From: an uncultured Streptococcus sp. | GTDB lineage: Bacteria > Bacillota > Bacilli > Lactobacillales > Streptococcaceae | NCBI RefSeq assembly: GCF_963456385.1 | Contig: NZ_CAUOLF010000003.1 | Location: 51,515-115,514 of the forward strand | Direction: 5' to 3' | DNA length: 64,000 bases | Shown here: one piece after another, positions 17,319 to 57,676 of the stretch | How positions within the stretch are numbered: position 1 is the first letter of the stretch | Layout: each line of letters starts with the position of its first letter | The notes under the pieces: generated by a model | Told to the model about the DNA's origin: nothing | The model's input: the letters and a program-made list of their open reading frames with translations, nothing else | Databases searched by the model: none | Position numbers and translations under genes: made by a program

Positions 17319-18043
17319 TAAAGGCATTGATTATCTATACCCAATTTTTTAGCCGGATTGTGATTCCAAAGGCAGTGGATATTTCCTATCTGCGACGGGG
17401 ACTTCCTTTTCTGACCCTCTTTGGCCTCTTGCTGGGTTTGATTTCAGGTGGATTTTATTTCCTGGTGAGCCTAGTCTTACCAGGGATTGTCGCTTGGGTT
17501 CTGACCCTTGCTTTCGATGTTCTGCTGACAGGTGGTTTTCACTTAGATGCCTTGGCGGATACGGCGGATGGGCTCTTCTCTTCTCGTAAGAAGGAGCGGA
17601 TGCTGGAGATTATGAAGGACAGCCGGATTGGCAGCAATGGCGTTCTGGCGCTCATTCTCTACTATGCTCTGATGCTGGTTCTCTACTCTTATCTGCCAGA
17701 GCCTCGCTGGTTTATCGTGGCTAGTCTGACCATGATTGGCAAGGCCGGTCTGAGCCTACAGCTTTACCGGATGACCTATGCTAGAGAAGGCGGCGGCTCG
17801 GGAAATTTCTTCAGTGGTAGCAAGACTAGTCATATCCTGCTTGCCCAGCTTCTTCCCTTACTCTTATCTCTGCTGGTTTTCAGTTGGAGAGGCCTTCTGG
17901 CTTACGGCTTAGTATTTTTGGGAGCAATCGGCTATCGCCGGTTCGTTTATAATAAAATTGATGGCCACACAGGCGATACGCTGGGAGCCTATGTCGAAAT
18001 TGCCCAGCTCCTCTATCTTTTAGGATTGGTGGTGCTGGGATGA
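17315..18043 (+). CDS. cobS: adenosylcobinamide-GDP ribazoletransferase
   Basis: TGGFHLDALADTADG, IMKDSRIGS.G, GHTGDTLGA; ATG at 17315. Confidence 0.96.
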   Translation: MIKALIIYTQFFSRIVIPKAVDISYLRRGLPFLTLFGLLLGLISGGFYFLVSLVLPGIVAWVLTLAFDVLLTGGFHLDALADTADGLFSSRKKERMLEIMKDSRIGSNGVLALILYYALMLVLYSYLPEPRWFIVASLTMIGKAGLSLQLYRMTYAREGGGSGNFFSGSKTSHILLAQLLPLLLSLLVFSWRGLLAYGLVFLGAIGYRRFVYNKIDGHTGDTLGAYVEIAQLLYLLGLVVLG

Positions 18044-18612
18044 AAAGATGGTATTTGATGCGGCATGGTCAGACAGACTACAACCGCAGGCGCTGTTTCT
18101 ACGGCAGCCATGATGTCTCTATCAACGAGCAAGGCCAAGCGGACTCCAAGCAGCTGGCGCTACTGATGCAGGAGCACACGGTCGATGCAATCTACACTAG
18201 TAGTCTCAAGCGGACGCAGGAAACAGCCCAGCTGGCTTTTCCAGACAGGCAAGTCAAGGCCTTAGCTGATTTTGACGAGCGAGGTTTCGGACAATGGGAA
18301 GGTTTGACAGCTGATGAGATTCAGGCAGCCTTTCCAGAAATCTGGCAGGCTTGGCTGGAGGCTCCCTTTGAGATTACGCCTCCTGAGGCAGAAGTGTTCG
18401 CTGACTTTCAGACCAGAGTCTGGGCAGCAACAGACCGCCTGCTAGATAGTACTGAGGACTCAATCGCTCTAGTAGCTCATTTGGGAGTCCTTCGCTTGAT
18501 TTACCAGCATTTGGTTGATGGAGAGGCTGTTTTTTGGAACATTGATGTCCCCCAAGGACGAGTGCTGCTCTTGGAAGAGCGTGACCAGACTTGGCAGGCG
18601 ACCTTACTCTAA
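18040..18612 (+). CDS. cobC: alpha-ribazole/adenosylcobalamin-5'-phosphate phosphatase (histidine phosphatase)
   Basis: LMRHGQT, SSLKRT.ET, E.GFG.WEG, VAH.G; follows cobS. Confidence 0.88.
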   Translation: MKRWYLMRHGQTDYNRRRCFYGSHDVSINEQGQADSKQLALLMQEHTVDAIYTSSLKRTQETAQLAFPDRQVKALADFDERGFGQWEGLTADEIQAAFPEIWQAWLEAPFEITPPEAEVFADFQTRVWAATDRLLDSTEDSIALVAHLGVLRLIYQHLVDGEAVFWNIDVPQGRVLLLEERDQTWQATLL

Positions 18613-32802: not shown

Positions 32803-33444
32803 ATGAAAAAGAGATATTATGAATTTTTGAATGTTCTTGTTACGGATTGTAATCCAATCAGAAACTTAGATTTTTATAAGGCTGGTTTAATTGAGTTGTT
32901 TTTTATCTCACTGGTATCTATCGTTTCGATTTTCTTACGCGGTGAGATGCATGAGCGGAGCATGATGGTCATGCAGTTTACTATTGGGCACATCGCTATC
33001 TTGTTGCTAGCCTTCTTATTGTTCCAAAAGTTTTTTGATACCAAAGCCTTGCAGCTCATTCCGACCAGCTCTTACCTATTTCTGCATTTTGAATTGCTTT
33101 TTTGGGGTTCCATCTTTTTTGGTGAGAACTACTTAGCATTTTTTATGATTTTTATCATACTCAGCTTGTCTTATCAGCTGATCAATTTGCTCTATCAGAT
33201 GGTGATCGTTTCAAAATTGAGATATTTTGAACAGAAACAAAAGATCAACATTTTGCAGATTCACGCCATCGTCCTGTGCTGCCTGTCAGCAGCAGTAGCA
33301 GTCATCACTCGCCTGTTTATGCTGTCAGGAATCTATATGATTATTGCATTAGTAGGCTTGAGCATTGCATTGACGCCCTTGTATCTATTGGGCTATGCAC
33401 AAGTTTTCACAGGCTGGAGAAATCAAGTGCCTGATAAATGGTAG
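32803..33444 (+). CDS. hypothetical multi-pass membrane protein
   Basis: 213 aa, several hydrophobic segments, GGGAG SD, upstream TGnTATAAT at 32723-32731. Confidence 0.8.
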   Translation: MKKRYYEFLNVLVTDCNPIRNLDFYKAGLIELFFISLVSIVSIFLRGEMHERSMMVMQFTIGHIAILLLAFLLFQKFFDTKALQLIPTSSYLFLHFELLFWGSIFFGENYLAFFMIFIILSLSYQLINLLYQMVIVSKLRYFEQKQKINILQIHAIVLCCLSAAVAVITRLFMLSGIYMIIALVGLSIALTPLYLLGYAQVFTGWRNQVPDKW

Positions 33445-33725
33445 AATTGAAGGGGGATTGTCGAAGAAACGATTTCCCTTTTTTTATTAAGAGTGAAGAA
33501 GTAAATGTGAATGCATCCGCTATAACTGGATTGTTTATCAAGAATGATTTAAAATGGATAAGAGTAATTAATACTGAGAAGTTTAGAAGAAACAAAAATA
33601 TCAGTATAGGAGCTGCAAAATGAAGAAAAAATATTACTATAGTATAATTCTTTTTGTTCAAGAAGGTAGTAATCGCTACAAGAAACTCAAGTTAAGGGAA
33701 AATCAACGATAGAAGGAGCCAGCTG

Positions 33726-34532
33726 ATGCAAAGACAAGGAACTGGTGAGCAGCGCTATAAAGCATTGAAGAAAAAAAGTATTTATCAAATGATTTATGGT
33801 ATTATTTTTTGGATTTTCTTATTTTATATATGGCTTGGGTATATATGGCTTGGCCTGCCCCATATTAACGTATTGTTTTGGATAATTTATCTCTCTCTTT
33901 TGGCTTATCTTATCTTTTGTGGTATACAATTGAGTATTCGGATTAATAATCTATTTTTAGAGGATATTGATTTGGATGCCTATAGATACTTTGTAGGGAT
34001 TTGCAAACCTGGGAAAAAAGCGGAAACTATCTATTTTACTACATTTAGAAAATGTAGGATAGAGCTTGCCGAAGGAAGATTTAAAGATGCTCTGAGTATA
34101 TTGGAAACAACGATTTCAAATCATAGTTTAGAGAAAGTAACAACTTTTAGACAGTTAACGATTTTTAGACAATTGATACTGTGTTCTATTTATTTAGCAG
34201 ACGAAGAGAAGTATCAATATTGGCTGTCTAGTTTGCAAGGAGTGGCGACAAATAGAAAATCCCTTTTAAAGCTCAAAGATTCTTTGCTAGAAGAAATGCA
34301 AGCGATTCATGATTTAGTAATAAATAAACAGCCTAATCCCTTTTTTGAGACTCATACTGCTAAAAATAGGTTTTCTTATTTGTTTAATCTTTACTACAAA
34401 GGCATAAATGCGAAGCTCAATCGTGATGAAGAAAAGGTGCTGACATGTTTTGAGGAATTGGCCAAAGAGAACGAACAGTTATTTATTGTTCAACAAGCAA
34501 AAGAAGAGTTGAGAAAAGCAATGATGGCTTAA
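33726..34532 (+). CDS. hypothetical membrane protein (2 N-terminal TM segments plus helical TPR-like domain)
   Basis: 268 aa; AAGGAG SD; AT-rich. Confidence 0.78.
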   Translation: MQRQGTGEQRYKALKKKSIYQMIYGIIFWIFLFYIWLGYIWLGLPHINVLFWIIYLSLLAYLIFCGIQLSIRINNLFLEDIDLDAYRYFVGICKPGKKAETIYFTTFRKCRIELAEGRFKDALSILETTISNHSLEKVTTFRQLTIFRQLILCSIYLADEEKYQYWLSSLQGVATNRKSLLKLKDSLLEEMQAIHDLVINKQPNPFFETHTAKNRFSYLFNLYYKGINAKLNRDEEKVLTCFEELAKENEQLFIVQQAKEELRKAMMA

Positions 34533-34557
34533 AAACAATAGGAGGGTGGTTTAGTTA

Positions 34558-35274
34558 ATGGCAAAGATAAATAGAAAAAATCAAGCAAAGATTACTGATA
34601 TAGAGAGATACCATGGTCCCTTGATTACACATGGTGTTAGTTTAGTTTATATTAAGTTATATCCATGGATTGCTTTAGCATTAACTGGTTTTCTGTATGT
34701 GGGTGGAACTTATGAAGACAATCTAGGCATCTTTAAAGGACTTTCTTTGTTTTGCGGTCTTGTGAATATATTAGGTATTATCATTTCTTTTATTCCCTAT
34801 TTGGTAAACGCATGGAAGGCTTTAACATATTATTTGATAGCCCTCACAGTGTTAAGCTTAGTGATAGTTACAAATTTTATTTGTTTACTAATGGTTATTT
34901 CAGACGGTAGTTCTATAGGAGCTAAGGAGATATATCAATCCCCTCTCACTCCATTTTATGTAATATTGATGATGTTCCTTTTTATCTTTGCTTGTGGTCT
35001 CTATGCTTGGTACTATCTCCCAAAGAATCAGGGGAAAGTCTGGGCTTTTAATCAAGTAAAAGAGGGAAATAGAAAGAAAACATGGTGGAATAATTTTGCT
35101 GTAGCTTTTGCCGGGGCAACAATCATTCCCTCCCTCCTAACAGGCTATATTCAGATTGCTTTTGGTGTTTTATTGGGAATTTTGTTGACCTTGACTTTGC
35201 CAGCTGTCATGGTAGATGCGTTTTATGCAGCTATTTATATAAGGAAACATCCGAAAAGTGATGAACTGATTTGA
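34558..35274 (+). CDS. hypothetical multi-pass membrane protein
   Basis: 238 aa; AGGAGG SD; about 6 hydrophobic helices. Confidence 0.8.
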   Translation: MAKINRKNQAKITDIERYHGPLITHGVSLVYIKLYPWIALALTGFLYVGGTYEDNLGIFKGLSLFCGLVNILGIIISFIPYLVNAWKALTYYLIALTVLSLVIVTNFICLLMVISDGSSIGAKEIYQSPLTPFYVILMMFLFIFACGLYAWYYLPKNQGKVWAFNQVKEGNRKKTWWNNFAVAFAGATIIPSLLTGYIQIAFGVLLGILLTLTLPAVMVDAFYAAIYIRKHPKSDELI

Positions 35275-35369
35275 GGTATTTTTACTAGCTGACAAAAATT
35301 TAAGTGGTGTACCGAATATACCCAATATAGTTAAACAATGATAAAAAATATACTTTAAAAGGAAAATGA

Positions 35370-35930
35370 ATGAAGAAATATTCTAATTTAGTAAACTTAG
35401 GCTGGTATCAGGGTAAGGCCCTTTATTATGATTTAGAGAAGGAACAATTAAAACTATCTAACGTTTTACAAAATACTGAGAAAATTCAGACCTATACCCC
35501 TGCCTTTATACTGATAGTTGGTCCATTGTTAAGGATGATAGCAAAGAAACTTGTAGTAGATTCTTTTAACATTCGATTAATAATACTAATTTTAACCATC
35601 TTTCTTACTGGGATTATTACTAGAATGGCAATGGTTTCTATGAAAAAGAAAACCACTTTTTCTATAGTAAATTTAGAAGGTTCTGAGGGAAAGGAGTTTA
35701 TAGAAAAAGCAAAAAAACATTATAAAGTAATTAGAATAACACAATTACTTGGTACCCCATGTGTGGTACTACTTTCCATATTGTATTTAAAAGATGGTGA
35801 TATGATGATGATGATACTCGGTAGTATTTTAAGTTATGCGCTTATTATGATTCATTATGACTACCAAATGTCTAAACGTAAGAAAATCTTGCAACATTTA
35901 GAAGAAAACTTTGCTAAGGCAGAGAAATAA
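35370..35930 (+). CDS. hypothetical membrane protein (about 4 TM segments)
   Basis: 186 aa; AAGGA SD; AT-rich. Confidence 0.78.
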   Translation: MKKYSNLVNLGWYQGKALYYDLEKEQLKLSNVLQNTEKIQTYTPAFILIVGPLLRMIAKKLVVDSFNIRLIILILTIFLTGIITRMAMVSMKKKTTFSIVNLEGSEGKEFIEKAKKHYKVIRITQLLGTPCVVLLSILYLKDGDMMMMILGSILSYALIMIHYDYQMSKRKKILQHLEENFAKAEK

Positions 35931-35952
35931 TTTTTCTCTGCCTTTATTTTTT
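35915..35952 (+). terminator. intrinsic terminator
   Basis: AAGGCAGAGAAA-loop-TTTCTCTGCCTT followed by a T-rich tract. Confidence 0.8.
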
Positions 35953-35960
35953 CACAAATC

Positions 35961-36002
35961 TGAAAGCGCTTCATTGACAAAGTCTGCCAGATAGTTTATA
36001 AT
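35961..36002 (+). promoter_or_regulatory. sigma-A promoter with adjacent cre (CcpA) site
   Basis: TGAAAGCGCTTCA 35961-35973; TTGACA 35974-35979, 17 bp spacer, TATAAT 35997-36002. Confidence 0.85.
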
Positions 36003-36022
36003 ATAATAACAGTATAGAAAAT

Positions 36023-36056
36023 GGCAAGGAAGCCTGATTTGATCGCAATGAAGCGA
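36023..36056 (+). promoter_or_regulatory. ANTAR (EutV) dual-hairpin element
   Basis: ggc-AAGGAA-gcc and tcgc-AATGAA-gcga; hexaloops with A1/G4. Confidence 0.8.
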
Positions 36057-36128
36057 GTGTTTCAGAATCAAAGGGGTTTTCTATGCCATTTTTTTGCGCA
36101 CTATTATTTTTTATGGAGGATTGTTTCT

Positions 36129-37445
36129 ATGCGGACAAAAGGAATTGTGCTGCTTTGTAGTTTGGCTTTGCTTCTGGGAGCTTGTCAAGCGGGGAATAAT
36201 AAGACGACGACTGAGTCATCCTCGGCTAAGACGGAGACAACAGATAAGGACAAGGCTAAGACTTTGGATAAGGGCGTCTGGGAAGACAAGCTTTATGCCC
36301 GTCTGACCAAGCTCATCAAGGAAAATGGGAACACCAGCTCTAGCTATGATAAAAATAAAAAACCTTATGCCGTCTTTGACTGGGACAATACGACAGTCAT
36401 TAACGATATTGGCGAAGCAACCTTTACCTATCAAATTGAAAATCTGGCCTTCAAGATGACGCCGGAAGAATTTGACCAAGCAGTGCGGACCAATATACCG
36501 AGCGACGATTTTGTTGAGGATTACCATAACAAAGATGGTGAGCCAGTAAACATCGACAAGATTGCGGCTGACTTGCTTTCTGACTATACAGCTATTTACA
36601 ATAGCTATAAGGGAATGCAAGGAGACAAGTCTCTGGAAGAAGTCAAAAAGACTGATGAATACCAAGACTTTGCTGCTAAACTCCGCTATCTTTACGAAGC
36701 GATTGGTGACACTTTCAGCTCTGACATCAGCTATCCATGGGTGACCTACCTCTATGCAGGTATGACTTCTGAAGAAGTTCAAGCCCTATCTGAAAAGTCT
36801 ATTGACCAGGCTCTTGAGGACAAGCTGACTTCTGAAACTTGGGAAAGTCCAGAAGGCTTGAAAGGTGAGTCAGGCCAAATCACCGTGACCTTCAAGCGCG
36901 GTGTTCGCTCGGTCAAGGAAATGCAAAATCTCTATAAGACTCTGATGGCTAACGGCATTGATGTCTATATCTGCTCAGCGTCTTATATCGATGTGATTAT
37001 CCCTTATGCTAGCAATTCTAAGTATGGCTACAATATTCCTAAAGAAAATGTTACTGCTATGCGCCTGAAAAAGGATGACAAGGGAGTGATTCAGCCGGAA
37101 TACGATACCAACTATGCTCAGACTCAGGGGGAGGGCAAGACAGAGACTATTAAGAAGCTGATTGCTGTCAATCATGACAATCAAGAACCAATCCTGATTG
37201 CCGGTGACAGTAATGGCGACTATGCTATGCTCAAGGATTTCCCTAAACTGCAAATGGGTATCATCTTCAATCTTCTGAGAGATCCTAGCAAGGGAATCGG
37301 TCTTTTGCAAACTAAGGCAATTGAAACTTACGGCCAGGAAGATGCACTTTACTACCTGCAAGGCCGCGATGAAAATAAAGGTGTACTGCTCAACGGCAGG
37401 GAAACTATCAAACTAGATAGTAAGGAAGCCCAGCTCAGTAAATAG
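36129..37445 (+). CDS. HAD-superfamily phosphatase lipoprotein (phosphorylcholine/phosphoethanolamine phosphatase-like)
   Basis: Lipobox LGAC; motif I AVFDWDNT, motif II YICSAS, Lys in GEGK, motif IV AGDSNGD; ATG 36129 after GGAGG. Confidence 0.85.
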   Translation: MRTKGIVLLCSLALLLGACQAGNNKTTTESSSAKTETTDKDKAKTLDKGVWEDKLYARLTKLIKENGNTSSSYDKNKKPYAVFDWDNTTVINDIGEATFTYQIENLAFKMTPEEFDQAVRTNIPSDDFVEDYHNKDGEPVNIDKIAADLLSDYTAIYNSYKGMQGDKSLEEVKKTDEYQDFAAKLRYLYEAIGDTFSSDISYPWVTYLYAGMTSEEVQALSEKSIDQALEDKLTSETWESPEGLKGESGQITVTFKRGVRSVKEMQNLYKTLMANGIDVYICSASYIDVIIPYASNSKYGYNIPKENVTAMRLKKDDKGVIQPEYDTNYAQTQGEGKTETIKKLIAVNHDNQEPILIAGDSNGDYAMLKDFPKLQMGIIFNLLRDPSKGIGLLQTKAIETYGQEDALYYLQGRDENKGVLLNGRETIKLDSKEAQLSK

Positions 37446-37475: not shown

Positions 37476-37919
37476 ATGCAAAATATGAAAAGAATCATGT
37501 TTGTTGGTCCAGTCGGAGTGGGTAAGACTACTCTGACCCAGCGACTGAAAGGCTTGGAGCTAAGCTACTTTAAGACTCAGGCTATTGAGTTCTATGATGC
37601 CATCATTGACACGCCTGGAGAATTTCTCCAGCATCGTAAGTATTATAATGCTCTGAACGTGACGGCAACGGAGGCTGATGTTATTGGTCTCTTGGTGGCG
37701 GCTTCCAATCAGATGCAGACCTTTCCTCAAGGCTTTTCTTCCCTCTTCAATAAAGAAGTGATTGGCATTGTCACCAAGATTGATATGGCTGATAAGGAAG
37801 AACAAATCGAAAAAGCACGGCGGCAGCTGAAAGCGGCTGGAGCCAAGGAAATTTTTGAAATATCAGCGACGGAAAACGAAGGAATTGACCGTCTTCAGGC
37901 TTATCTGGAGTCAGACTAG
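37476..37919 (+). CDS. eutP: EutP/PduV family P-loop protein
   Basis: VGPVGVGKTTL, YFKTQAI, IDTPGEF, GIVTKID. Confidence 0.92.
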   Translation: MQNMKRIMFVGPVGVGKTTLTQRLKGLELSYFKTQAIEFYDAIIDTPGEFLQHRKYYNALNVTATEADVIGLLVAASNQMQTFPQGFSSLFNKEVIGIVTKIDMADKEEQIEKARRQLKAAGAKEIFEISATENEGIDRLQAYLESD

Positions 37920-37982: not shown

Positions 37983-39077
37983 ATGAAAGTAGAGCACGGG
38001 GGAAATGCGGCAGCTTTGGCTGAGGAATTTGGTTTTTCTCTAGAAGACTGTCTGGATTTCAGTGCCAATATCAATCCTCTGGGGATTTCTCAAAAGCTAA
38101 GGGCTTGTCTGACCGAGTCCATTGATTGGCTGGTTCATTATCCAGACATCAGCTACAGCCACTCCAGAGAGCTTTTGGCACATCATCATGGCCTAGAAAA
38201 GGACAATGTACTGCTGGCAAATGGCGCGGTAGAAGTCTTTTATGAGTTGGCCCGCTTCCTGCGTCCAAAAACAGTCCTTACTCTGAGCCCTACTTTCATG
38301 GAATATGAGAAAGCCTTCTCGCAGGTACAGGCCAAGGTAGAGCGCTTTAGCCTCCCTTCCCCATCCTATGAGTGGAGTCTAACTGACATGTTGCCAGCCT
38401 TGGATTCACTGACTGCAGGAGACGCTGTACTCATCTGCAATCCTAATAATCCGACGGGTACCTTGATTCGGCGTACTGAGTTAGAAAAGTTAGCTGACTA
38501 CTTGCAGGAGCGGCAAATCTTTTTGATACTAGATGAGGCTTTTATAGACTTTCTGAACGATGAGGAGGACTATAGCTTCGTCTCCTGTCTGGCCACCTAT
38601 CCAAATACAGTAGTGGTGCGGTCTCTGACCAAGTTTTATGCTATTCCTGGTCTGAGATTGGGCTATGCTCTCAGCTGTCATCCAACTTGCTTTGATGAGA
38701 TAGAGGGGAACCGCGCTCCTTGGTCGGTCAATGCTATGGCGGATCACGCCCTGCCTGTCCTTTTGGAGGATCAGGCCTATCAGCAAGCTACCAAGGAGTG
38801 GCTTCGAGTAGAAAGAGATTTCCTTTTTCAAGGAATGACTGCATTTTCACAGATTCGGCCGGTCAAGCCTAGTGTCAACTATATCTTCTTTGAATATTTA
38901 GGTCGGCAGGATCTGCGTCAGGAGCTTCGGCAGAGAAAGATTTTTATCCGTTCCTGTCAAAATTATCATGATCTGACAGAACGTCATTACCGCATAGCCA
39001 TCCGCAGTCATCAGGAGAATGAACAGCTTCTGGCTTGTCTGACAGAGGTCTTGGCGAAAGAGGCTCCTTATGACTAA
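37983..39077 (+). CDS. cobD: L-threonine-O-3-phosphate decarboxylase
   Basis: HGGN, DFSANINPLG, CNPNNPTG, LDEAFIDF, RSLTKFYAIPGLRLGY. Confidence 0.95.
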   Translation: MKVEHGGNAAALAEEFGFSLEDCLDFSANINPLGISQKLRACLTESIDWLVHYPDISYSHSRELLAHHHGLEKDNVLLANGAVEVFYELARFLRPKTVLTLSPTFMEYEKAFSQVQAKVERFSLPSPSYEWSLTDMLPALDSLTAGDAVLICNPNNPTGTLIRRTELEKLADYLQERQIFLILDEAFIDFLNDEEDYSFVSCLATYPNTVVVRSLTKFYAIPGLRLGYALSCHPTCFDEIEGNRAPWSVNAMADHALPVLLEDQAYQQATKEWLRVERDFLFQGMTAFSQIRPVKPSVNYIFFEYLGRQDLRQELRQRKIFIRSCQNYHDLTERHYRIAIRSHQENEQLLACLTEVLAKEAPYD

Positions 39078-39936
39078 GGGAATCGTGTCCTGTCCAGGTT
39101 CTTGCGGTGAATTATTTCAAGGTTTAGTAGGAGAGCAGGAGATCTTGCTCTCCTATGGGATTGAGAAGCGCAGTCGAGTGAGATTGGACGGGGTTTCGTC
39201 TCTCGCAAGGCAACCCCAAGGTGAAAAGGTAAGGCGAGCTTTGGAGCTCCTGCCTGTGGCCAATGATTTCTCTTTTGTTCAGGAGTCAGACCTGCCTATC
39301 AGCAAGGGCTATTCCAGCAGCACAGCTGATATGATTAGCTGCCTGCAGGCAGCTGCTCTGGGACAAAAGCAGCCTCTAAAGGCATCAGATTTAACTCGTC
39401 TCTGTGCCGAGATTGAGCCTACTGACTCGGTGGCTTTTGCGGACTGGACGGTCATTGAGCCCCTGACTGGTCAAGTGGTCTGGCAGACAGACTGGCGACC
39501 GGAGCTCTATGTCTATATCTTGGAGCCTGTGGAAATGGTGACAACTCTTGACTTGGTTCGGATGAAGGACAGTTCTAGCTATCCGGCTGAGGAGTCTAAG
39601 TGTTTGCTTCCTCTCTTTCAGGAGGCTTGTCAGGAGAAGAGTTTGGAAAAACTTGGCCATTTAGCGAGCTATAGTGCTTTGTTGAACAACCAACGGCTAC
39701 CCAAACCCTATCTGAAAGAATTACTGGCTTTGGTAAAAGAACACCAGTGTTTAGGCCTCAATGTTGCCCATAGTGGTACATTGGTTGGTCTGTTGCTGAG
39801 CAGGGAACAGCTAGAAGTCTTGCCTAAGCTAGAGTCTGAGCTAGCTCGCTCAGCCAGTGGGGCTTATTATCAGACTCGGACCTTGAGCAGGATTATTTTT
39901 GAAGGGGTGCAGCCGGTCAGGGAGGAGACAGACTAG
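39070..39936 (+). CDS. pduX: L-threonine kinase (GHMP family)
   Basis: CPGSCGELFQG, LPISKGYSSSTAD, IEPTDS, VAHSGT. Confidence 0.92.
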   Translation: MTKGIVSCPGSCGELFQGLVGEQEILLSYGIEKRSRVRLDGVSSLARQPQGEKVRRALELLPVANDFSFVQESDLPISKGYSSSTADMISCLQAAALGQKQPLKASDLTRLCAEIEPTDSVAFADWTVIEPLTGQVVWQTDWRPELYVYILEPVEMVTTLDLVRMKDSSSYPAEESKCLLPLFQEACQEKSLEKLGHLASYSALLNNQRLPKPYLKELLALVKEHQCLGLNVAHSGTLVGLLLSREQLEVLPKLESELARSASGAYYQTRTLSRIIFEGVQPVREETD

Positions 39937-39937
39937 T

Positions 39938-41005
39938 TTGAAAGACTTAGAAAAAATTATTGAGCAGATTCTTCCATTAGACAAAGACAAGGTTCAAGAA
40001 GGCCAGCGCTATTGTGATCAATTAGGGAAACCTCCGGGGTCCTTGGGAAAGCTCGAGACTATCTATGCTCGCTTGCATGCCATGTTTTCTGGACCTATTG
40101 ACCTAGAGAAGAAGATTGTCCTCGTCTATGTGGCAGATAATGGCATTGTGGCTGAAGGCGTTTCTGCCAACCCTCAGGAAACGACCTATACTGTTGCTCG
40201 CAATATTCTAGTAGGGAAATCAGGCTTGTGTGCCATTTCAGAACATGCAGGTTCAGACATCTGTCTGGTAGACATTGGCTGCAAGAAGGATATCTTTGAG
40301 GAAAATAAGGACAAGGTTTGTCATGGGACGCGCAATATGCTCAGGGAATCAGCCATGACTCGCGAGCAGGCTATAGCGGCAATTCTAGTCGGCTACAAGA
40401 AGACAGAGGCCTTGATCAAAGACGGCTATCGTCTCTTTGGAACAGGAGAAATGGGGATTGGCAACACCACCACCTCGGCTGCTGTCATTGCAGCGGTTCT
40501 CGGTCTAAAAGCAGAAGATGTCACAGGCTATGGAGCTGGTCTGACTCAGGATATGAAGGCTCATAAAACAGCCATTATCCAGCGGTGTTTGGATCGTCAT
40601 GCTCCTTATGGAGATATTCTTGATCTGACCGCTAAGCTTGGTGGGCTAGATATGCTGGCTATGGCAGGCACTCATCTCGCCTGTGCCAGCTATCAGCTGC
40701 CTTGTGTAGTGGACGGTCTTATCTCTCTGACGGGGCTTCTGATTGCCCATCAGCTGACTCCTCATGTCTTGGACTATGCATTTGCTTCCCATGCTTCGAC
40801 GGAGCCTGCTTACAAACTGGTCAGTAACTTTCTAGGACTGGAGCCCATGCTTTTGCTGGATATGCGGCTAGGTGAAGGCTCGGGCTGTCCTTTGGCTTTC
40901 TTTCTGCTGGAAAATGCTGTCTATACCATGGAGCACATGCCAACCTTTGCTGAAGGCAGCTTGAAAGAAGAAGATTATGTTGATATTCGCAAAAATGTGA
41001 CTTAA
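39938..41005 (+). CDS. cobT: nicotinate-nucleotide:dimethylbenzimidazole phosphoribosyltransferase
   Basis: KPPGSLGKLE, ADNG...EGVS, GEMGIGNTTTSAA, MRLGEGSG; TTG start after GGAGG. Confidence 0.95.
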   Translation: MKDLEKIIEQILPLDKDKVQEGQRYCDQLGKPPGSLGKLETIYARLHAMFSGPIDLEKKIVLVYVADNGIVAEGVSANPQETTYTVARNILVGKSGLCAISEHAGSDICLVDIGCKKDIFEENKDKVCHGTRNMLRESAMTREQAIAAILVGYKKTEALIKDGYRLFGTGEMGIGNTTTSAAVIAAVLGLKAEDVTGYGAGLTQDMKAHKTAIIQRCLDRHAPYGDILDLTAKLGGLDMLAMAGTHLACASYQLPCVVDGLISLTGLLIAHQLTPHVLDYAFASHASTEPAYKLVSNFLGLEPMLLLDMRLGEGSGCPLAFFLLENAVYTMEHMPTFAEGSLKEEDYVDIRKNVT

Positions 41006-41017
41006 AGGAGGAAAAAT

Positions 41018-41617
41018 ATGCAACTCTATACAAAAACAGGTGACAAGGGCTTGACCAAGCTAGTTGGCGGCCAAAGTGTTGCCAAGGATGCAGAACGAGT
41101 GAATGCTTACGGAACCATTGATGAGCTGAACTCTTGGATTGGTTATACTATTACCAAGCTGGACAAGGATGATAAGCTGAGAGATGAGCTGCTCCAGCTG
41201 CAGCATTATCTCTTTGACTGTGGTTCAGACCTCTCTACTCCTCAGGGAGTTTACCCTTATAAGGTCGATCAGCAGCTGATTGACTGGATTGAGGAGAGGA
41301 TTGATACCTACGCAGAAATTCCACCGGCTCTGGAAAGGTTTATCCTGCCAGGCGGTGACGAGATTGCTTCCATGATTCATGTGGCTCGGACCATTGCAAG
41401 ACGGGCAGAGCGTCATATCGTAGGGGCTATGTGGACTACAGAAATTAACAATAATGTCCTGATTTTTGTCAACCGTCTATCAGATTACTTCTTTGCCTTG
41501 GCTCGAGTAATCAACTTTACTAAAAACCAGGAAGACATCGCCTATGAAAGAGGTGCCAAGGTCTTCCACAATATCACCAAGGCGGATGTTGAGCGTTGGG
41601 CAAGCAAACGCCAGTGA
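41018..41617 (+). CDS. pduO: PduO-type ATP:cob(I)alamin adenosyltransferase (copy 2)
   Basis: LYTKTGDKG.T, VNAYGTIDELNS, FILPGG, ARRAER, NRLSDYFF. Confidence 0.92.
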   Translation: MQLYTKTGDKGLTKLVGGQSVAKDAERVNAYGTIDELNSWIGYTITKLDKDDKLRDELLQLQHYLFDCGSDLSTPQGVYPYKVDQQLIDWIEERIDTYAEIPPALERFILPGGDEIASMIHVARTIARRAERHIVGAMWTTEINNNVLIFVNRLSDYFFALARVINFTKNQEDIAYERGAKVFHNITKADVERWASKRQ

Positions 41618-41755: not shown

Positions 41756-41920
41756 CTAGCTTTCCAATTATTGACTCTGCTCCTTTGCAGAAAGACAAGA
41801 GAAACCTCATCTTTAGAAAATTAACGTACTTAAACGTAGAGTCAATAATGGAAACTAAGCTAAAATGTTTGTTCCAAACTGACATCACTACCTTACATCG
41901 AGGCATGAAATCTACTAAAA

Positions 41921-42009
41921 TTTAAGAATAAAGACCTGACTTAAAGCTGAAAAGCTTATCACAGTGGCGGGACCGCGCTGGATTTGCACCAGACTTCCAT
42001 ATCCTTAAA
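41921..42009 (-). promoter_or_regulatory. cobalamin (AdoCbl) riboswitch aptamer, compact eut-type
   Basis: Minus strand GGAAGTCTGGTGCAAATCCAGCGCGGTCCCGCCACTGTGA...AAGTCAGGTC (T-loop and B12 box), closed by TTTAAGGATA/TATTCTTAAA. Confidence 0.92.
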
Positions 42010-42038
42010 AGTACTAAAATCAATTTCCTAGTAACTAG

Positions 42039-42168: not shown

Positions 42169-42197
42169 TTGCCATGAAAGCGCTTTTGTGTTATAAT
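42169..42197 (+). promoter_or_regulatory. eutG promoter with cre site in the spacer
   Basis: TTGCCA-17bp-TATAAT with TG extension; TGAAAGCGCTTTTG at 42175-42188. Confidence 0.85.
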
Positions 42198-43943: not shown

Positions 43944-44519
43944 ATGAAAGGCAGAATACTAATTGTTGATGATGATCCAATTGTAAGATTAGATATCCGA
44001 AATATATTAGAAGCAGCTGATTATGAAGTGGTGGCTGAGGCATCCGATGGCTTTGAGGCTATTGATTTGTGTCAGAAATATCGTTGTGACTTGGTCATGA
44101 TGGACATCAAGCTTCCGCTTCTAGATGGCCTGACAGCGGGTAAGAAGATACTCGAAGATGCTTTAGCCTACAGTGTGATTCTACTGTCAGCCTACAGTGA
44201 AGAACACTATGTTCAAAAAGCTAAAACCAATGGGATTAGTGCTTACTTGGTTAAACCTTTGGATGCCAAATCCTTGATTCCTATGGTAGAGGTCTGCATT
44301 GAGAAGGGCCGCCAGCTTCAGCAGATGTCCAATGAAATGGTCAAGCTGTCGAAAAAGATAGACGATCGGATTGTGATTGAAAAGGCCAAAGGCTTACTGA
44401 TGGCTCGTGATCATTTGTCAGAGCCAGAAGCTTTCAAGCGCATTCGGACAATTAGTATGCAAAAGAGAGTGCCGATGATTGAGATTGCTAAATTGCTGGT
44501 GCTCCAAGATGATGTGTAA
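43944..44519 (+). CDS. eutV: ANTAR-domain response regulator
   Basis: Receiver domain (IVDDD, MDIKLP..DG, YLVKP) plus ANTAR domain (IEKAKGLLM, AF..IR..SM). Confidence 0.95.
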   Translation: MKGRILIVDDDPIVRLDIRNILEAADYEVVAEASDGFEAIDLCQKYRCDLVMMDIKLPLLDGLTAGKKILEDALAYSVILLSAYSEEHYVQKAKTNGISAYLVKPLDAKSLIPMVEVCIEKGRQLQQMSNEMVKLSKKIDDRIVIEKAKGLLMARDHLSEPEAFKRIRTISMQKRVPMIEIAKLLVLQDDV

Positions 44520-45955
44520 TGATGTATAAAGATAAGATAAAGCAGCTTTGTCAGGAACAGACAAATTTGGATGAGGCTGATATCGAGCATCTTGTCCAAC
44601 AGGCTGACGAATTATTGAAAAACTCAGCTTATGCCAATGAAGATGTCTTCATTGATGTAAAGAACATCTTTTCGGAACATGCCATTGTCATCTTTCACAA
44701 AAAACCGGAAAGCAAGCTCAGCTTGTACGAAAACTCGGTTGTAGGTGCTATGGCCTATCTGGAAAATGAGCCAGGTGTTATCCGGACCTTGGAGACGGGC
44801 GCTCCTTCGATAGGGCTTTCGGCCAGATCGCAGGAGGGCTTAGCCATCCATCAGACGGTCTTTCCGATAGTGAGAGAAGAGCGCGTCATTGGAACGCTGA
44901 TTATCGAAAGAAATGCTCCTCAGACTTTACCGGACCACTTTTCTTTAGATAAAGAGAACGACGGTTTTGAGTTACGGAGCACTCCTGAGATTTCAGCCCA
45001 AGAGCAGTTTGTTTTATTTGATCATATAGATGAAGCTTGTCTGGTCTTTGACCAGCAGGGTTATCTCAAGTATTTCAATCAAGCAGCCGCTGATTCTTAT
45101 CGCCATAAGCTGGGCTATATGGACTCGATTGAAGGAATGCACTATAGCAATCTGGTCTTAGACAGTCTGACTTTTGAAGAAATCCAGCAACTGGGACCGC
45201 AAGCCCCTCAAGAAAAACCTCACCAAGTTGAGGTACATTATGGCACTTATTGCTTTTTGGTCAAGCGCTACCTGCTGGCTGAGAGTGAAAATGTGGTCAT
45301 GATCTGTAAGGATATTACAGATATTAAGGAAAAGGAAGCGCAGCTCTTAACCCATACAACTACCATTCGTGAAATGAACCATCGGGTAAAGAATAACTTG
45401 CAAACCGTTGTTTCCTTGCTACGACTACAGGCTCAGCAAAGTCCAGGAGCAGACACCAAAAAAGCTCTTAATGACAGTATGAACCGTGTGCTCTCCATAG
45501 CGGCGACCCACGAGCTCCTGTCTTCTCAGCAGGATGACAGCATTCAGATTGAGCATCTGCTGAAAAAAGTTATCGAAAATGTTCAGCGCTGTTTTTCCGG
45601 GCATAGGGAAATAACCCTGACCTACAGCCTGGAACCGGAACTCTGTCTCGACAGCAGCCGGGCTACTTCACTGGCACTAATCGTCAATGAATTACTGCAG
45701 AACAGCTATGAACATGCTTTTAAGGACAAAAAAAATCCAGAAAAACCGCAAATCCGTTTGCAGGTTGGACTTAAAAATGATATAATAACTTTAAAAGCAC
45801 TGGATAATGGTAGCGGTTACAATCGAGAGCATTCCTTTGAGAATCATTTGGGTCTACTCTTGGTGGAGCGCTTTGTCCAAGGAAAATTGTTTGGAACCTT
45901 GTCTATCCACTCAGACTATGAGGGAACGACAACGACCATTCGTTTTAAAAAATAA
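44519..45955 (+). CDS. eutW: ethanolamine-sensing cytoplasmic histidine kinase
   Basis: EPGV.RT, HisKA_2 motif EMNHRVKNNLQ, NELLQNSYEHAF, DNG.G, LGL. Confidence 0.93.
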   Translation: MMYKDKIKQLCQEQTNLDEADIEHLVQQADELLKNSAYANEDVFIDVKNIFSEHAIVIFHKKPESKLSLYENSVVGAMAYLENEPGVIRTLETGAPSIGLSARSQEGLAIHQTVFPIVREERVIGTLIIERNAPQTLPDHFSLDKENDGFELRSTPEISAQEQFVLFDHIDEACLVFDQQGYLKYFNQAAADSYRHKLGYMDSIEGMHYSNLVLDSLTFEEIQQLGPQAPQEKPHQVEVHYGTYCFLVKRYLLAESENVVMICKDITDIKEKEAQLLTHTTTIREMNHRVKNNLQTVVSLLRLQAQQSPGADTKKALNDSMNRVLSIAATHELLSSQQDDSIQIEHLLKKVIENVQRCFSGHREITLTYSLEPELCLDSSRATSLALIVNELLQNSYEHAFKDKKNPEKPQIRLQVGLKNDIITLKALDNGSGYNREHSFENHLGLLLVERFVQGKLFGTLSIHSDYEGTTTTIRFKK

Positions 45956-54082: not shown

Positions 54083-54709
54083 ATGACTTTAGAAAATTTG
54101 GTAAATAAAGTAATTGATAAAGTTCAGGAAGAATTGCAGGGGTCATTTGAGGTAGAGGCGAGCGGACGTCATGTCCATTTGAGTCAGGAAGATTTGGAAG
54201 CCTTGTTTGGTCCCAACTATCAATTAACAAAAGCAAAAGACCTATCACAGCCAGGCCAGTTCGCTAGTCAAGAAAGGCTGACAGTTGTCGGTCCAAAAGG
54301 CGCTTTTCACAATGTGGTTATTCTGGGGCCTGTTCGCAAACATTCTCAGGTAGAAGTTTCCCTGACCGATTGTTTGCAGCTGGGCACCAAGGCTCCCATT
54401 CGCGAAAGTGGCGATATCGAAGGAACACCGGGTGTCATCTTGGCTCATGGGGACAAGGCAGTTTGTCTGGATAAGGGCCTGATTGTAGCTAAGCGTCATG
54501 TTCATATGACACCGGAAGATGCCGAACGTCTGAATGTAAAAAATCACGAGATTGTACAAGTCAGAGTAGAAGGTGCTCGTCCGCTGATTTTTGACGATGT
54601 GGTTATCCGTGTTAGTCCCAAGTTTGCGACTTATATGCATATTGACTACGATGAAGCCAATGCTTGTGGTTTCAAAAAAGGAACACGCGGACGGATTATT
54701 AAAAAATAA
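54083..54709 (+). CDS. pduL: PduL-type phosphotransacylase
   Basis: EASGRHVHLS, LSQPGQFA, ILGPVR..SQVEVS.TD, IVAKRHVHM, MHIDYDEANA. Confidence 0.95.
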   Translation: MTLENLVNKVIDKVQEELQGSFEVEASGRHVHLSQEDLEALFGPNYQLTKAKDLSQPGQFASQERLTVVGPKGAFHNVVILGPVRKHSQVEVSLTDCLQLGTKAPIRESGDIEGTPGVILAHGDKAVCLDKGLIVAKRHVHMTPEDAERLNVKNHEIVQVRVEGARPLIFDDVVIRVSPKFATYMHIDYDEANACGFKKGTRGRIIKK

Positions 54710-55700: not shown

Positions 55701-56795
55701 ATGAGTATCAATGAAATTATCATTTATATCATGGTTCTATTCATGCTGATCGGTGCAGTGGATAAATGTATCGGTGGCAAACTAGGACTAAGTGAAAAAT
55801 TTGAAGAAGGTATCATGGCTATGGGAGCTTTGGCTCTGTCTATGGCTGGGATTATGGTAATCGCTCCCCTCTTGGCGGATGTCTTGAAACCGATTGTCGT
55901 GCCTTTGTATGGCTTGGTGGGGGCTGACCCGTCTATCTTTGCGACAACCTTCATTGCCAATGATATGGGAGGAGCTCCTCTGGCTCTCAGTCTGGCTCAG
56001 GATCCAGCAGTAGGAAATTTCGCTGCCTTTGTACTGGGCTCTATGATGGGGCCAACCATCGTCTTTACGATTCCAGTTGCCTTGGGTATTATTGAAAAAG
56101 ATGACCGTCCGCTTTTGGCTCGCGGAATCCTATACGGTTTGGTAACTGTTCCGATTGGCTGTCTCCTCGGAGGAATTTTCGTGCCAGGTCTGCCTTTTGG
56201 AACCTTGGTTGTCAATCTTATCCCGATTATCATTGTATCTGCTCTGATTTTCATAGGATTGCTTTTGGCACCTAATGCCATGATTAAAGGTTTTGAAGTG
56301 TTTGGTCAGATTATTGTTATCTTGGCAACGCTTGGTTTGGCTTTTGGTGCAGCGCAGCTTCTGACTGGAAATGAATGGCTCATCAGCATCTATCCAAAAG
56401 GTGCTGAGACACTGAAAGAAGCCTTTGAAGTTGTCGGAACGATTGCCGTAACCTTGGCTGGAGCCTTTGGTTTGGTAGCTGTCTTTACCAAGGTAGCCAA
56501 CAAACCGCTTTCTGCTATCGGAAAATCCCTAGGAATGAACGAAGTTGGTGCAGCTGGTTTGGTAGCTTCTCTGGCTAATAACATTGCCATGTTCCAAATG
56601 ATGAAGGATATGGACAAACGCGGTAAGATTATCAACGTAGCCTTTGCCGTATCTGCTTCCTTTGTTATCGGAGATCACCTAGGCTTCACAGCTGGTCAAA
56701 AACCGGAAATGATTGTGCCGATGATGATTGGTAAATTTGTCGGCGGTATCACAGCGGTATTACTGGCTTTCTTCTTAACGAAGAAGGAAGCTTAG
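55701..56795 (+). CDS. eutH: ethanolamine transporter
   Basis: FEEGI.AMG.LALSM.G, ANDMGG, SMMGPTIVFTIPVALG, GDHLGF. Confidence 0.95.
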   Translation: MSINEIIIYIMVLFMLIGAVDKCIGGKLGLSEKFEEGIMAMGALALSMAGIMVIAPLLADVLKPIVVPLYGLVGADPSIFATTFIANDMGGAPLALSLAQDPAVGNFAAFVLGSMMGPTIVFTIPVALGIIEKDDRPLLARGILYGLVTVPIGCLLGGIFVPGLPFGTLVVNLIPIIIVSALIFIGLLLAPNAMIKGFEVFGQIIVILATLGLAFGAAQLLTGNEWLISIYPKGAETLKEAFEVVGTIAVTLAGAFGLVAVFTKVANKPLSAIGKSLGMNEVGAAGLVASLANNIAMFQMMKDMDKRGKIINVAFAVSASFVIGDHLGFTAGQKPEMIVPMMIGKFVGGITAVLLAFFLTKKEA

Positions 56796-57262: not shown

Positions 57263-57662
57263 TTTGTTGGAAGATTCAACTATCAGATTTACTAGAATGG
57301 CAGGACAGCGGCCTGCTGTCCTGCCATTCTGTAATGATGGAAAATAAAAAAAACAGATAAAAGATGAGCAACCCTGCGAAAAGTTTATCATCTGTTATCT
57401 GCCTCTGCGATTGTTATTTCTGAAGGGAAAGGCCTGTCAAGTATATTTCTTGTAGGCTTAGCTTGGCATTCCTAAAAAAGTTGGTTAGGCTTTTTTGGAG
57501 AACGCGGAAAAATCTTCCTTTTTAAAAAACAACCATATTCATTCTAACAGAAAACCTTAGAATAATCTATTCTTTTGACCCAAAAAAAGTTTAAAAAAAG
57601 GAATCAGAAAGAGGCGTATAGCTATGGTGCACCTCTTATCTGATTTCCTTATTCCCTAAAAT

Positions 57663-57676
57663 TGTAAGCGCTTCAA
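57663..57676 (+). promoter_or_regulatory. cre (CcpA) site upstream of pduB
   Basis: TGTAAGCGCTTCAA. Confidence 0.75.

Follow-up and report, generated by a model that had tools for sequence, protein, structure and literature searches.

In reviews of bacterial ethanolamine use, the compound is supplied by phosphodiesterases acting on phosphatidylethanolamine; the main text of PMC5821096 contains neither "phosphatase" nor "phosphoethanolamine". The closest characterised relative of the enzyme considered here, phosphorylcholine phosphatase (PchP) of Pseudomonas aeruginosa (structure 4AS2), is a periplasmic HAD enzyme that hydrolyses phosphocholine, phosphoethanolamine and p-nitrophenyl phosphate, and is induced via the pathway of its product (available sections of PMC3170909); its activity on phosphoethanolamine, mentioned in a preliminary description of the present locus, is thereby upheld. 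The regulatory counterpart is the EutV/ANTAR antiterminator of Enterococcus faecalis: two hexaloops with A1 and G4, a C-G closing pair, a short linker and a competing terminator, with EutVW encoded in the locus (available part of PMC3369931). A “HAD” gene is listed in the eut locus of Fusobacterium nucleatum without a function (available part of PMC11796344), and a Fusobacterium eut HAD protein, PchP-like (28% reported), has been predicted to be a phosphate acetyltransferase (available part of PMC6620236), so the family is not new to eut loci; the preliminary description had placed it outside the canonical Salmonella, Enterococcus and Listeria eut gene sets. The gene described here lies at 36129..37445 (plus strand, as are the features given below in the form start..end unless noted) in a 64,000-nucleotide stretch from an uncultured Streptococcus sp. 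(contig NZ_CAUOLF010000003.1, positions 51,515 to 115,514; “the window”). Its product is probably an exported phosphoethanolamine phosphatase whose synthesis is induced by the ethanolamine that it releases. This interpretation, already proposed in the preliminary description, is supported; substrate, export and EutV binding are what we infer.

The window covers the cob-eut-pdu island of Streptococcus sanguinis: cobalamin synthesis genes, the eut cluster and the start of the propanediol cluster. The HAD gene product is 98-100% identical to proteins from named S. sanguinis genomes, and the gene corresponds to SSA_0508 of strain SK36: both are 1317 nt long, with the same cre and the same neighbours, as given in the supplementary tables of PMC7674665.

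The 438-residue protein, annotated as a phosphoserine phosphatase, begins with a signal peptide bearing a lipobox (LGA-C19; 36129..36185) and is a predicted lipoprotein. Residues 1-40 are disordered in the predicted model, as for a tether, and are followed by a confident fold (pLDDT 90.8): a Rossmann-like HAD core with a cap, the top fold matches of which are HAD enzymes. All four HAD motifs are complete (D84WDNT, S283AS, K337, G359DSNGD); all 35 aligned homologues keep D84, D86, T88, K337, D360 and D364, and all have S or T at the position of S283. Catalysis is presumably Mg-dependent, by way of a phospho-aspartate at D84, with D86 as acid-base and with S283, K337, D360 and D364.

Sequence, profile and fold all bear out the proposed likeness to PchP. 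Profile search gave E 2.3e-23 to PchP vs. 0.0009 to phosphoserine phosphatase, and fold search Z 27.5 (rmsd 3.7, 291 aligned) vs. at most 14.8. PchP residues D40, E43 and YPW align with D93, E96 and Y202-P-W204, which are invariant or present in 34 of 35 homologues; the PchP tyrosine triplet Y82-Y84, which with E42 and E43 belongs to the alkylammonium site, lies outside the aligned stretches. The two thus share export (here predicted), the DxDNT/S/K/GD..D motifs and equivalents of the cap residues. They differ in that identity is about 20-23%, the streptococcal protein has about 70 more residues in its folded part, is a predicted Gram-positive lipoprotein and does not keep E42, and choline, GbdR and NtrC control of PchP is replaced by eut, eat or eutH linkage with ANTAR or EutR control. 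With ethanolamine neighbours and an ANTAR leader in place of a choline regulon, the enzyme is likened to PchP in its working and is not classed as PchP.

In the same fold search, 4GXT, an uncharacterised protein of Anaerococcus prevotii, scored Z 51.0 (rmsd 1.9, 377 aligned; TM 0.82/0.93). It belongs to the same family (36% identity) but aligns from its first residues to the folded part, apparently as a signal-less form, and has PYCW in place of SYPW. The annotated identity, SerB phosphoserine phosphatase, was rejected: the HAD-IB core is shared, but the TIGR01488 match is weak (37.4 bits, cut-off 45), fold Z is 15 or less, and the protein is twice as long, has a lipobox instead of being cytoplasmic, is predicted to be exported and has no serine-pathway neighbours. 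Pfam gave no match for the 438-residue protein, including no PTAC or PTA domain (PF01515, PF06130), and the ESM Atlas returned solely HAD or phosphoserine phosphatase cluster names. PHOSPHO1 and plant PECP1, described as phosphoethanolamine phosphatases, are HAD enzymes with the reaction proposed here; they are eukaryotic, no PHOSPHO1-type entry is among the sequence or fold matches listed, and the analogy is one of reaction only.

At E 1e-30 or better the family has 359 representatives. An N-terminal hydrophobic stretch is present in 94 of 101 homologues starting with Met, and a lipobox-like word in 71, by a crude pattern test. Four members (P0175, P0265, P0127, P0069) are fused to S-layer homology, 5'-nucleotidase, Ig-like or copper-amine-oxidase N-terminal domains, which is consistent with work at the surface. 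There is also a signal-less subfamily (L130-L132, L116, L124:10773-11924 and PDB 4GXT), some of it within eut clusters; Streptococcus merionis has both exported and signal-less forms, about 5 kb apart. In one genome (G016:C10:898037-899352; L125) the HAD gene is split in two frames, by frameshift or assembly error, with leader and eutP intact.

Genome surveys tie the family to ethanolamine. Among 401 Streptococcus genomes a strong HAD match was found in 43, EutB in 48 and both in 42 (20 further genomes with only weak signal-peptide matches were dropped); with 42 of 43 streptococcal carriers EutB-positive, the co-occurrence test put forward in the preliminary description came out strongly positive. 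The two genes are within 15 kb in 36 of the 42 genomes, within 50 kb in three and on different contigs in three. In 401 genomes of the phylum, EutB occurs in 29 and HAD in four, all EutB-positive. Non-streptococcal carriers (30 of 32 scored) have EutB in 28 cases and EutH in the other two; CutC is found in six of 29 scored. An ethanolamine gene lies no more than 4.5 kb from HAD in 14 of 30 GTDB, 35 of 56 metagenome and six of eight Fusobacteriaceae loci tested, homologue counts resting on the best 80 of 561 and best 80 of 371 matches; several metagenome loci without such a neighbour lie on contigs shorter than 3 kb.

HAD homologues, over three bacterial phyla, adjoin eutH, eat or eutBC in at least seven different gene orders. 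In most streptococci HAD is the first gene of the cluster, before eutP; in other streptococci and a Clostridiaceae genome (G275, G145, L101) it is the last, after eutH-eutQ. In Fusobacteriaceae it adjoins eutE (L105, L127, L128), and in Propionivibrio it follows eutBC-eutL-eutM (L106). Lampropedia and many high-GC contigs (L104, L169, L199) have a shell-less eutR-eat-eutBC-HAD set with eutR divergent, and Paenibacillus a two-gene HAD-eat unit (TIGR00908 over cut-off in three of three tested). In Neisseria sp. HSC-16F19 (L065:2184-11290), whose genome yielded no EutB, HAD follows eutH in a cluster with a divergent RpiR regulator, a glutamine-synthetase-like gene, an aldehyde dehydrogenase, an Fe-ADH and a peptidase C26. 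This set resembles the glutamylation route described for Streptomyces (available part of PMC6529630) and is a candidate glutamylation-type ethanolamine pathway using EutH. One contig (L214:4270-10439) carries eutR, eat, eutB, eutC, HAD and a glycerophosphodiester phosphodiesterase in one run, the last directly after HAD, as expected for a head-group salvage unit. In a tree of 44 rows (the motif filter lost L101, L127, L128, L183 and L213, and four long branches are unreliable), ethanolamine-linked members fall in several supported clades; the Neisseria copy lies inside the streptococcal clade (94/99, not starred), a lead, and only that, to gene transfer.

The sole common feature of these contexts is free ethanolamine entering the cell, and for this reason ethanolamine is taken as the product of the enzyme. 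We think it fairly likely that the family is a dedicated ethanolamine-phosphate phosphatase module, recruited repeatedly beside three unrelated routes of ethanolamine use (microcompartment EutBC, shell-less eat-eutBC, and the glutamylation-type cluster in a Neisseria) and placed under ANTAR and EutR control.

Some further arrangements were seen. In L183, L211 and L213, HAD stands with a divergent eat permease gene and with genes for an APH-family kinase and an AraC regulator; here the phosphatase may be coupled to an amino-alcohol kinase route. Seven loci (L185, L188, L191, L194, L196, L203, L206) have a two-gene insert (about 115 and 417 aa) between eutC and HAD; a scan of the L185 insert identified an HTH gene and a HipA-like gene. 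In the S. australis / parasanguinis group (L079, L081, L087, L091), pduBCDE rather than eutSVW follows HAD-eutP-cobD-pduX-cobT-eutT-eutG, and in G052 the eut block is about 20 kb from that same run. An isolated eutH in G828 had no informative neighbours.

Upstream of the gene, the cre, consensus promoter and two ANTAR hexaloops of the preliminary description, like the lipoprotein with HAD motifs and eutP that follow, were found in place by inspection of the sequence and by scans. The unit is insulated by the intrinsic terminator of the upstream gene (35916..35954; 12-pair stem plus T run), and the RNA reads from a related strain cease to match the sequence 5' of 35915. A cre (TGAAAGCGCTTCA, 35961..35973) abuts the -35 box of a sigma-70-type promoter (TTGACA-17-TATAAT, 35974..36002), the sole site with 12 of 12 matches among 18 listed in 34-40 kb. 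The identical cre sequence is given upstream of SSA_0508 in Table S2 of PMC7674665. Cre-like words stand at the matching position in six of nine other correctly oriented streptococcal leaders (by eye), and TTGAC and TATAAT-like boxes at the equivalent position in most related leaders.

Next come hairpins P1 (GGC-AAGGAA-GCC, 36023..36034), with three pairs and loop positions A1 and G4 invariant in 12 of 12 leaders, and P2 (TCGC-AATGAA-GCGA, 36043..36056; RNAalifold, covariation), whose loop AATGAA is the same as that of P2 in the eutG leader, as had been noticed. The RNAalifold consensus over 12 streptococcal leaders (aligned anew without the wrongly oriented G105 row) is exactly P1 plus P2, with 97.6% of cells pairing. 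Six of the seven P1/P2 pairs show no compensating change, and the other a C-G/U-A swap (7 vs. 5 sequences, probably a single event). An ORF scan had begun the gene at an in-frame ATG at 36021, giving 474 aa. This start was rejected, since the ATG falls inside P1 and near-identical strains differ in how far the frame stays open; translation truly starts at 36129, with a GGAGG ribosome-binding site at 36115..36119 (GGAG before ATG is conserved).

Both hairpins are sequestered in an alternative fold, a predicted intrinsic terminator (36012..36095; seven T at 36089-36095). This long hairpin ending at the T run is the lowest-energy leader fold (z -3.9; 0 of 200 shuffles), at -34.9 kcal/mol free vs. 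-21.2 kcal/mol with P1 and P2 forced; because forcing them costs about 14 kcal/mol, the two states are mutually exclusive. An equivalent long hairpin precedes a U-run in 10 of 10 streptococcal leaders folded. A simple terminator scan did not list the long hairpin, and Rfam gave no match to the leader at gathering scores. The cognate regulators, identified by Pfam, are in the same locus at 43944..45955 (eutV, receiver-ANTAR, 43944-44519; eutW, sensor kinase, 44519-45955). Dual loops, an overlapping exclusive terminator and a cognate regulator are the marks of an EutV/ANTAR target. The differences from the Enterococcus faecalis antiterminators are that the terminator stem here includes P1 too, and that the first controlled gene encodes a predicted exported enzyme.

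The preliminary description gave the leader to the HAD gene. It does precede that gene, and it also holds the canonical place of the eutP leader, so it serves eutP too: eutP/pduV (37476..37919; PF10662, TIGR02528) begins 30 nt past the HAD stop codon and is likely co-transcribed. SSA_0508 and eutP change together in two published datasets, as far as given in PMC7674665 and PMC6904348. Two Enterococcus-clade HAD homologues each have their own dual hairpin, which lacks a U-run; the first homologue is distant from eut genes, and the second is divergent from an eutP that bears a separate hairpin pair. ANTAR-type control is therefore not merely inherited from the eutP leader. In Paenibacillus (L085-L103) the HAD-eat pair is preceded by one AACGGT hexaloop that overlaps a terminator and may be an ANTAR site in reduced form; by the rule used these leaders have no second loop, and they were rejected as ANTAR sites.

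Several observations weigh against an exported phosphoethanolamine phosphatase that serves ethanolamine use. The HAD gene is accessory, without a match in 25 of the 29 EutB-positive genomes of the phylum sample and six of 48 in Streptococcus; profile re-search of five of those six found none. Sixteen of the 30 GTDB loci stand alone, mostly in Clostridium/Hathewaya, and the clostridial stand-alone loci show no dual hairpin. No phospholipase C was found among the neighbours scanned of the stand-alone clostridial copies. In G233 a HAD fragment and leader lie at a contig end, and neither EutB nor EutH was found. Close kin swell the counts (about 27 near-identical S. sanguinis, nine Paenibacillus, many similar high-GC loci); for this reason, and because they come from best-match subsets, the diversity of arrangements outweighs the totals. 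PchP E42 is not conserved (G95 here; E 16, G 12, Q 6 among 35). A signal peptide is missing from 33 of the 90 representatives that are more distant, among them copies located within eut clusters of Fusobacteriaceae, so export is not a family constant. Strain SK36 is reported not to have grown when ethanolamine was the only carbohydrate (data not shown in bioRxiv 2022.09.21.508965, available part), and an SSA_0508 mutant has no significant defect in human serum (0.84, p 0.13); the benefit may therefore be ammonia, nitrogen or extra ATP rather than growth. A literature search found no usable data on phosphoethanolamine supply in mouth or saliva. HAD enzymes, moreover, are often promiscuous, and PchP itself takes several substrates.

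The strongest competing explanation is a broad amino-alcohol or general surface phosphatase that acts on phosphocholine, phosphoserine, phosphothreonine or aminopropanol phosphate, serves the supply of phosphate or choline no less than that of ethanolamine, and stands behind the eutP leader incidentally. PchP indeed prefers phosphocholine (available part of PMC3170909), databases call the protein a phosphoserine phosphatase, many of the clostridial copies are unlinked, and the leader is by position that of eutP. The neighbours, however, are ethanolamine permeases and lyases, with no choline gene among 107 neighbour proteins scanned; CutC is as infrequent among carriers as given above, this genome has no CutC over cut-off and no choline kinase was found in it, and the stand-alone carriers nonetheless have EutB elsewhere in the genome. 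We regard this explanation as unlikely, and favour an ethanolamine-directed phosphatase.

It is somewhat less likely still that the hairpins are not functional EutV sites and that CcpA alone controls the gene. CcpA control itself, proposed from the cre, is borne out by published data: in a ccpA null mutant SSA_0508 rises by 1.91 log2 and eutP by 2.40 log2 (Table 2 of PMC6904348), so that a putative CcpA site at the promoter is accompanied by derepression without CcpA. In a manL mutant SSA_0508-0531 are up 2- to 5-fold (available part of bioRxiv 2022.09.21.508965). For CcpA acting alone, the leader is outside the five SK36 matches of Fig. S2 in PMC3369931 (as available), the terminator departs from the textbook layout in burying not P2 alone but also P1, and reads cross the leader in three RNA-seq runs. 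These runs are shallow, apparently unstranded and of unknown condition, with thin coverage of leader and ORF; they do indicate that the ORF is transcribed. A small-RNA run gave four reads, confined to about 36019-36090 and absent from the ORF, a pattern that fits an attenuated leader and is suggestive only.

On the other side, the leader satisfies the published rules (6-nt loops with A1 and G4, 3-bp stems, linker of 8-9 nt where 5-12 is allowed; available part of PMC3369931), the dual hairpin is kept in all 12 leaders while their flanks diverge, and when the 125-nt leader was dinucleotide-shuffled 10,000 times, 4 of the shuffles had a C-G-closed dual hexaloop. A strict dual loop, both loops starting AA, occurs five times in the 2.26-Mb genome, three times with a downstream U-run: in the HAD-gene, eutG and cbiA leaders. 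(The strict rule misses the eutA leader, which has a mismatch in P1.) The unit is real, conserved and CcpA-repressed and probably EutV-controlled.

The cbiA site (G000:C3:45350; L114:7351), a dual hairpin with terminator about 6 kb upstream of the window, is found in the list of PMC3369931 (as available) and occurs in L117 too. Since it precedes cbiA, de novo B12 synthesis is likely under EutV control.

This bears on a further possibility, that the phosphatase belongs to cobamide synthesis or salvage, with alpha-ribazole phosphate, threonine phosphate or an aminopropanol- or ethanolamine-phosphate linker as substrate. Besides the ANTAR leader before cbiA, cobD, a pduX-like kinase gene, cobT and eutT come after the HAD gene in streptococci (here 37983..41617), and three clostridial copies are divergent from cbiP-cbiB-cobD. 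This block apparently has a second promoter of its own (TG-N-TATACT just 5' of cobD, by eye), however, and shifts only about -0.6 log2 where SSA_0508/0509 shift about -2 (PMC7674665, available part); cobD and cobT respond far less than SSA_0508 and eutP in PMC6904348 as well, as far as given there. A cobC-type phosphatase gene is already present at 18040-18612 (TIGR03162, 140.7 bits, below the 162.9 cut-off), the proposed substrates are cytoplasmic, and most other linked loci pair HAD with eat, eutH or eutBC rather than cob genes. On the presence of the cobC-type gene, the location of the substrates and the differing expression, a role in B12 synthesis is very unlikely.

Least probable of all is that the protein works in the microcompartment pathway as a phosphate acetyltransferase of a third kind, or that it hydrolyses acetyl phosphate there: section 10 of PMC6620236 reports the HAD gene in 12 Fusobacterium eut clusters without EutD and PduL, and a signal-less 366-aa form (40% identical) lies between eutQ and eutG in G866, G840 and G876, in the first two of which PduL was not found, but the present locus has pduL (54083..54709; PF06130), so that HAD is not filling a missing acetyltransferase slot, the genome has Pta, HAD and PduL share a cluster in G841, G856, G275, G145 and L101, the protein has a lipobox and neither acetyltransferase domain, and homologues occur in shell-less eat-eutBC operons, the HAD-eat pair and a cluster without EutB. 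For the exported form the idea thus fails, on PduL in the cluster, Pta in the genome and the sharing of clusters by HAD and PduL; it may hold for the signal-less eutQ-HAD-eutG form only. The Fusobacteriaceae homologues are 40-54% identical to the present protein and lie in eut clusters. Family, likeness and position (inside a eut cluster, PF12710-type, PchP-like) suggest that the published Fusobacterium eut HAD protein belongs to the same family; the eutQ-HAD-eutG form differs in having no signal peptide.

Elsewhere in the window, eutH, the ethanolamine permease gene, is at 55701..56795 (PF04346). The AdoCbl riboswitch of an EutX-like sRNA is on the minus strand at 41877..42025 (RF01482, 130 bits), followed by ANTAR-type hairpins, with a hairpin near 41788; this reverse orientation in S. 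sanguinis has already been described in PMC5821096. More cre-like sites are found at 57662-57676, before pduB, and about 42170-42185, in the promoter region of eutG. Four small membrane-type ORFs without clear family matches separate queG from the HAD gene (32803-35930); the set is strain-variable, only the first being present in L031, and gives the impression of a variable immunity-type cassette.

If the phosphatase acts on phosphoethanolamine, the enzyme, predicted to be membrane-anchored and outward-facing, would hydrolyse it to ethanolamine and phosphate outside the cell, and the ethanolamine would then be available to the EutH permease and to the microcompartment pathway of EutBC. By default, transcription would halt at the long leader hairpin. 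Ethanolamine would activate EutW, and phosphorylated EutV would then bind P1 and P2 and let the polymerase read through; B12 would gate the system via EutX, and on preferred sugars CcpA at the cre would block the promoter. Basal enzyme would free ethanolamine and so induce more enzyme. Such a circuit is product induction, that is, positive feedback, and not the feed-forward loop first proposed. Phosphocholine and similar esters may also be accepted, the selected role being ethanolamine supply.

SSA_0508 was found in two main texts, in both only as a differentially expressed gene, and no paper was found, figures and some supplements lying outside the search, that assigns phosphoethanolamine phosphatase function to this HAD family. 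The surprise would be moderate, because neither the chemistry nor the regulatory logic is of a new kind. If the reading is right, two annotations, phosphoserine phosphatase and phosphate acetyltransferase, would be corrected for several hundred clusters, and 4GXT would gain a function. The acetyltransferase assignment of the Fusobacterium eut HAD protein would be overturned, with the signal-less form acting on an imported or internal phosphoethanolamine pool. Ethanolamine use would have a second way in, the counterpart of the route from phospholipase C through PchP to choline in Pseudomonas. Phosphoethanolamine would join free ethanolamine and glycerophosphoethanolamine as a genuine nutrient, and would also act as an inducing signal, for bacteria of the mouth, gut and soil.

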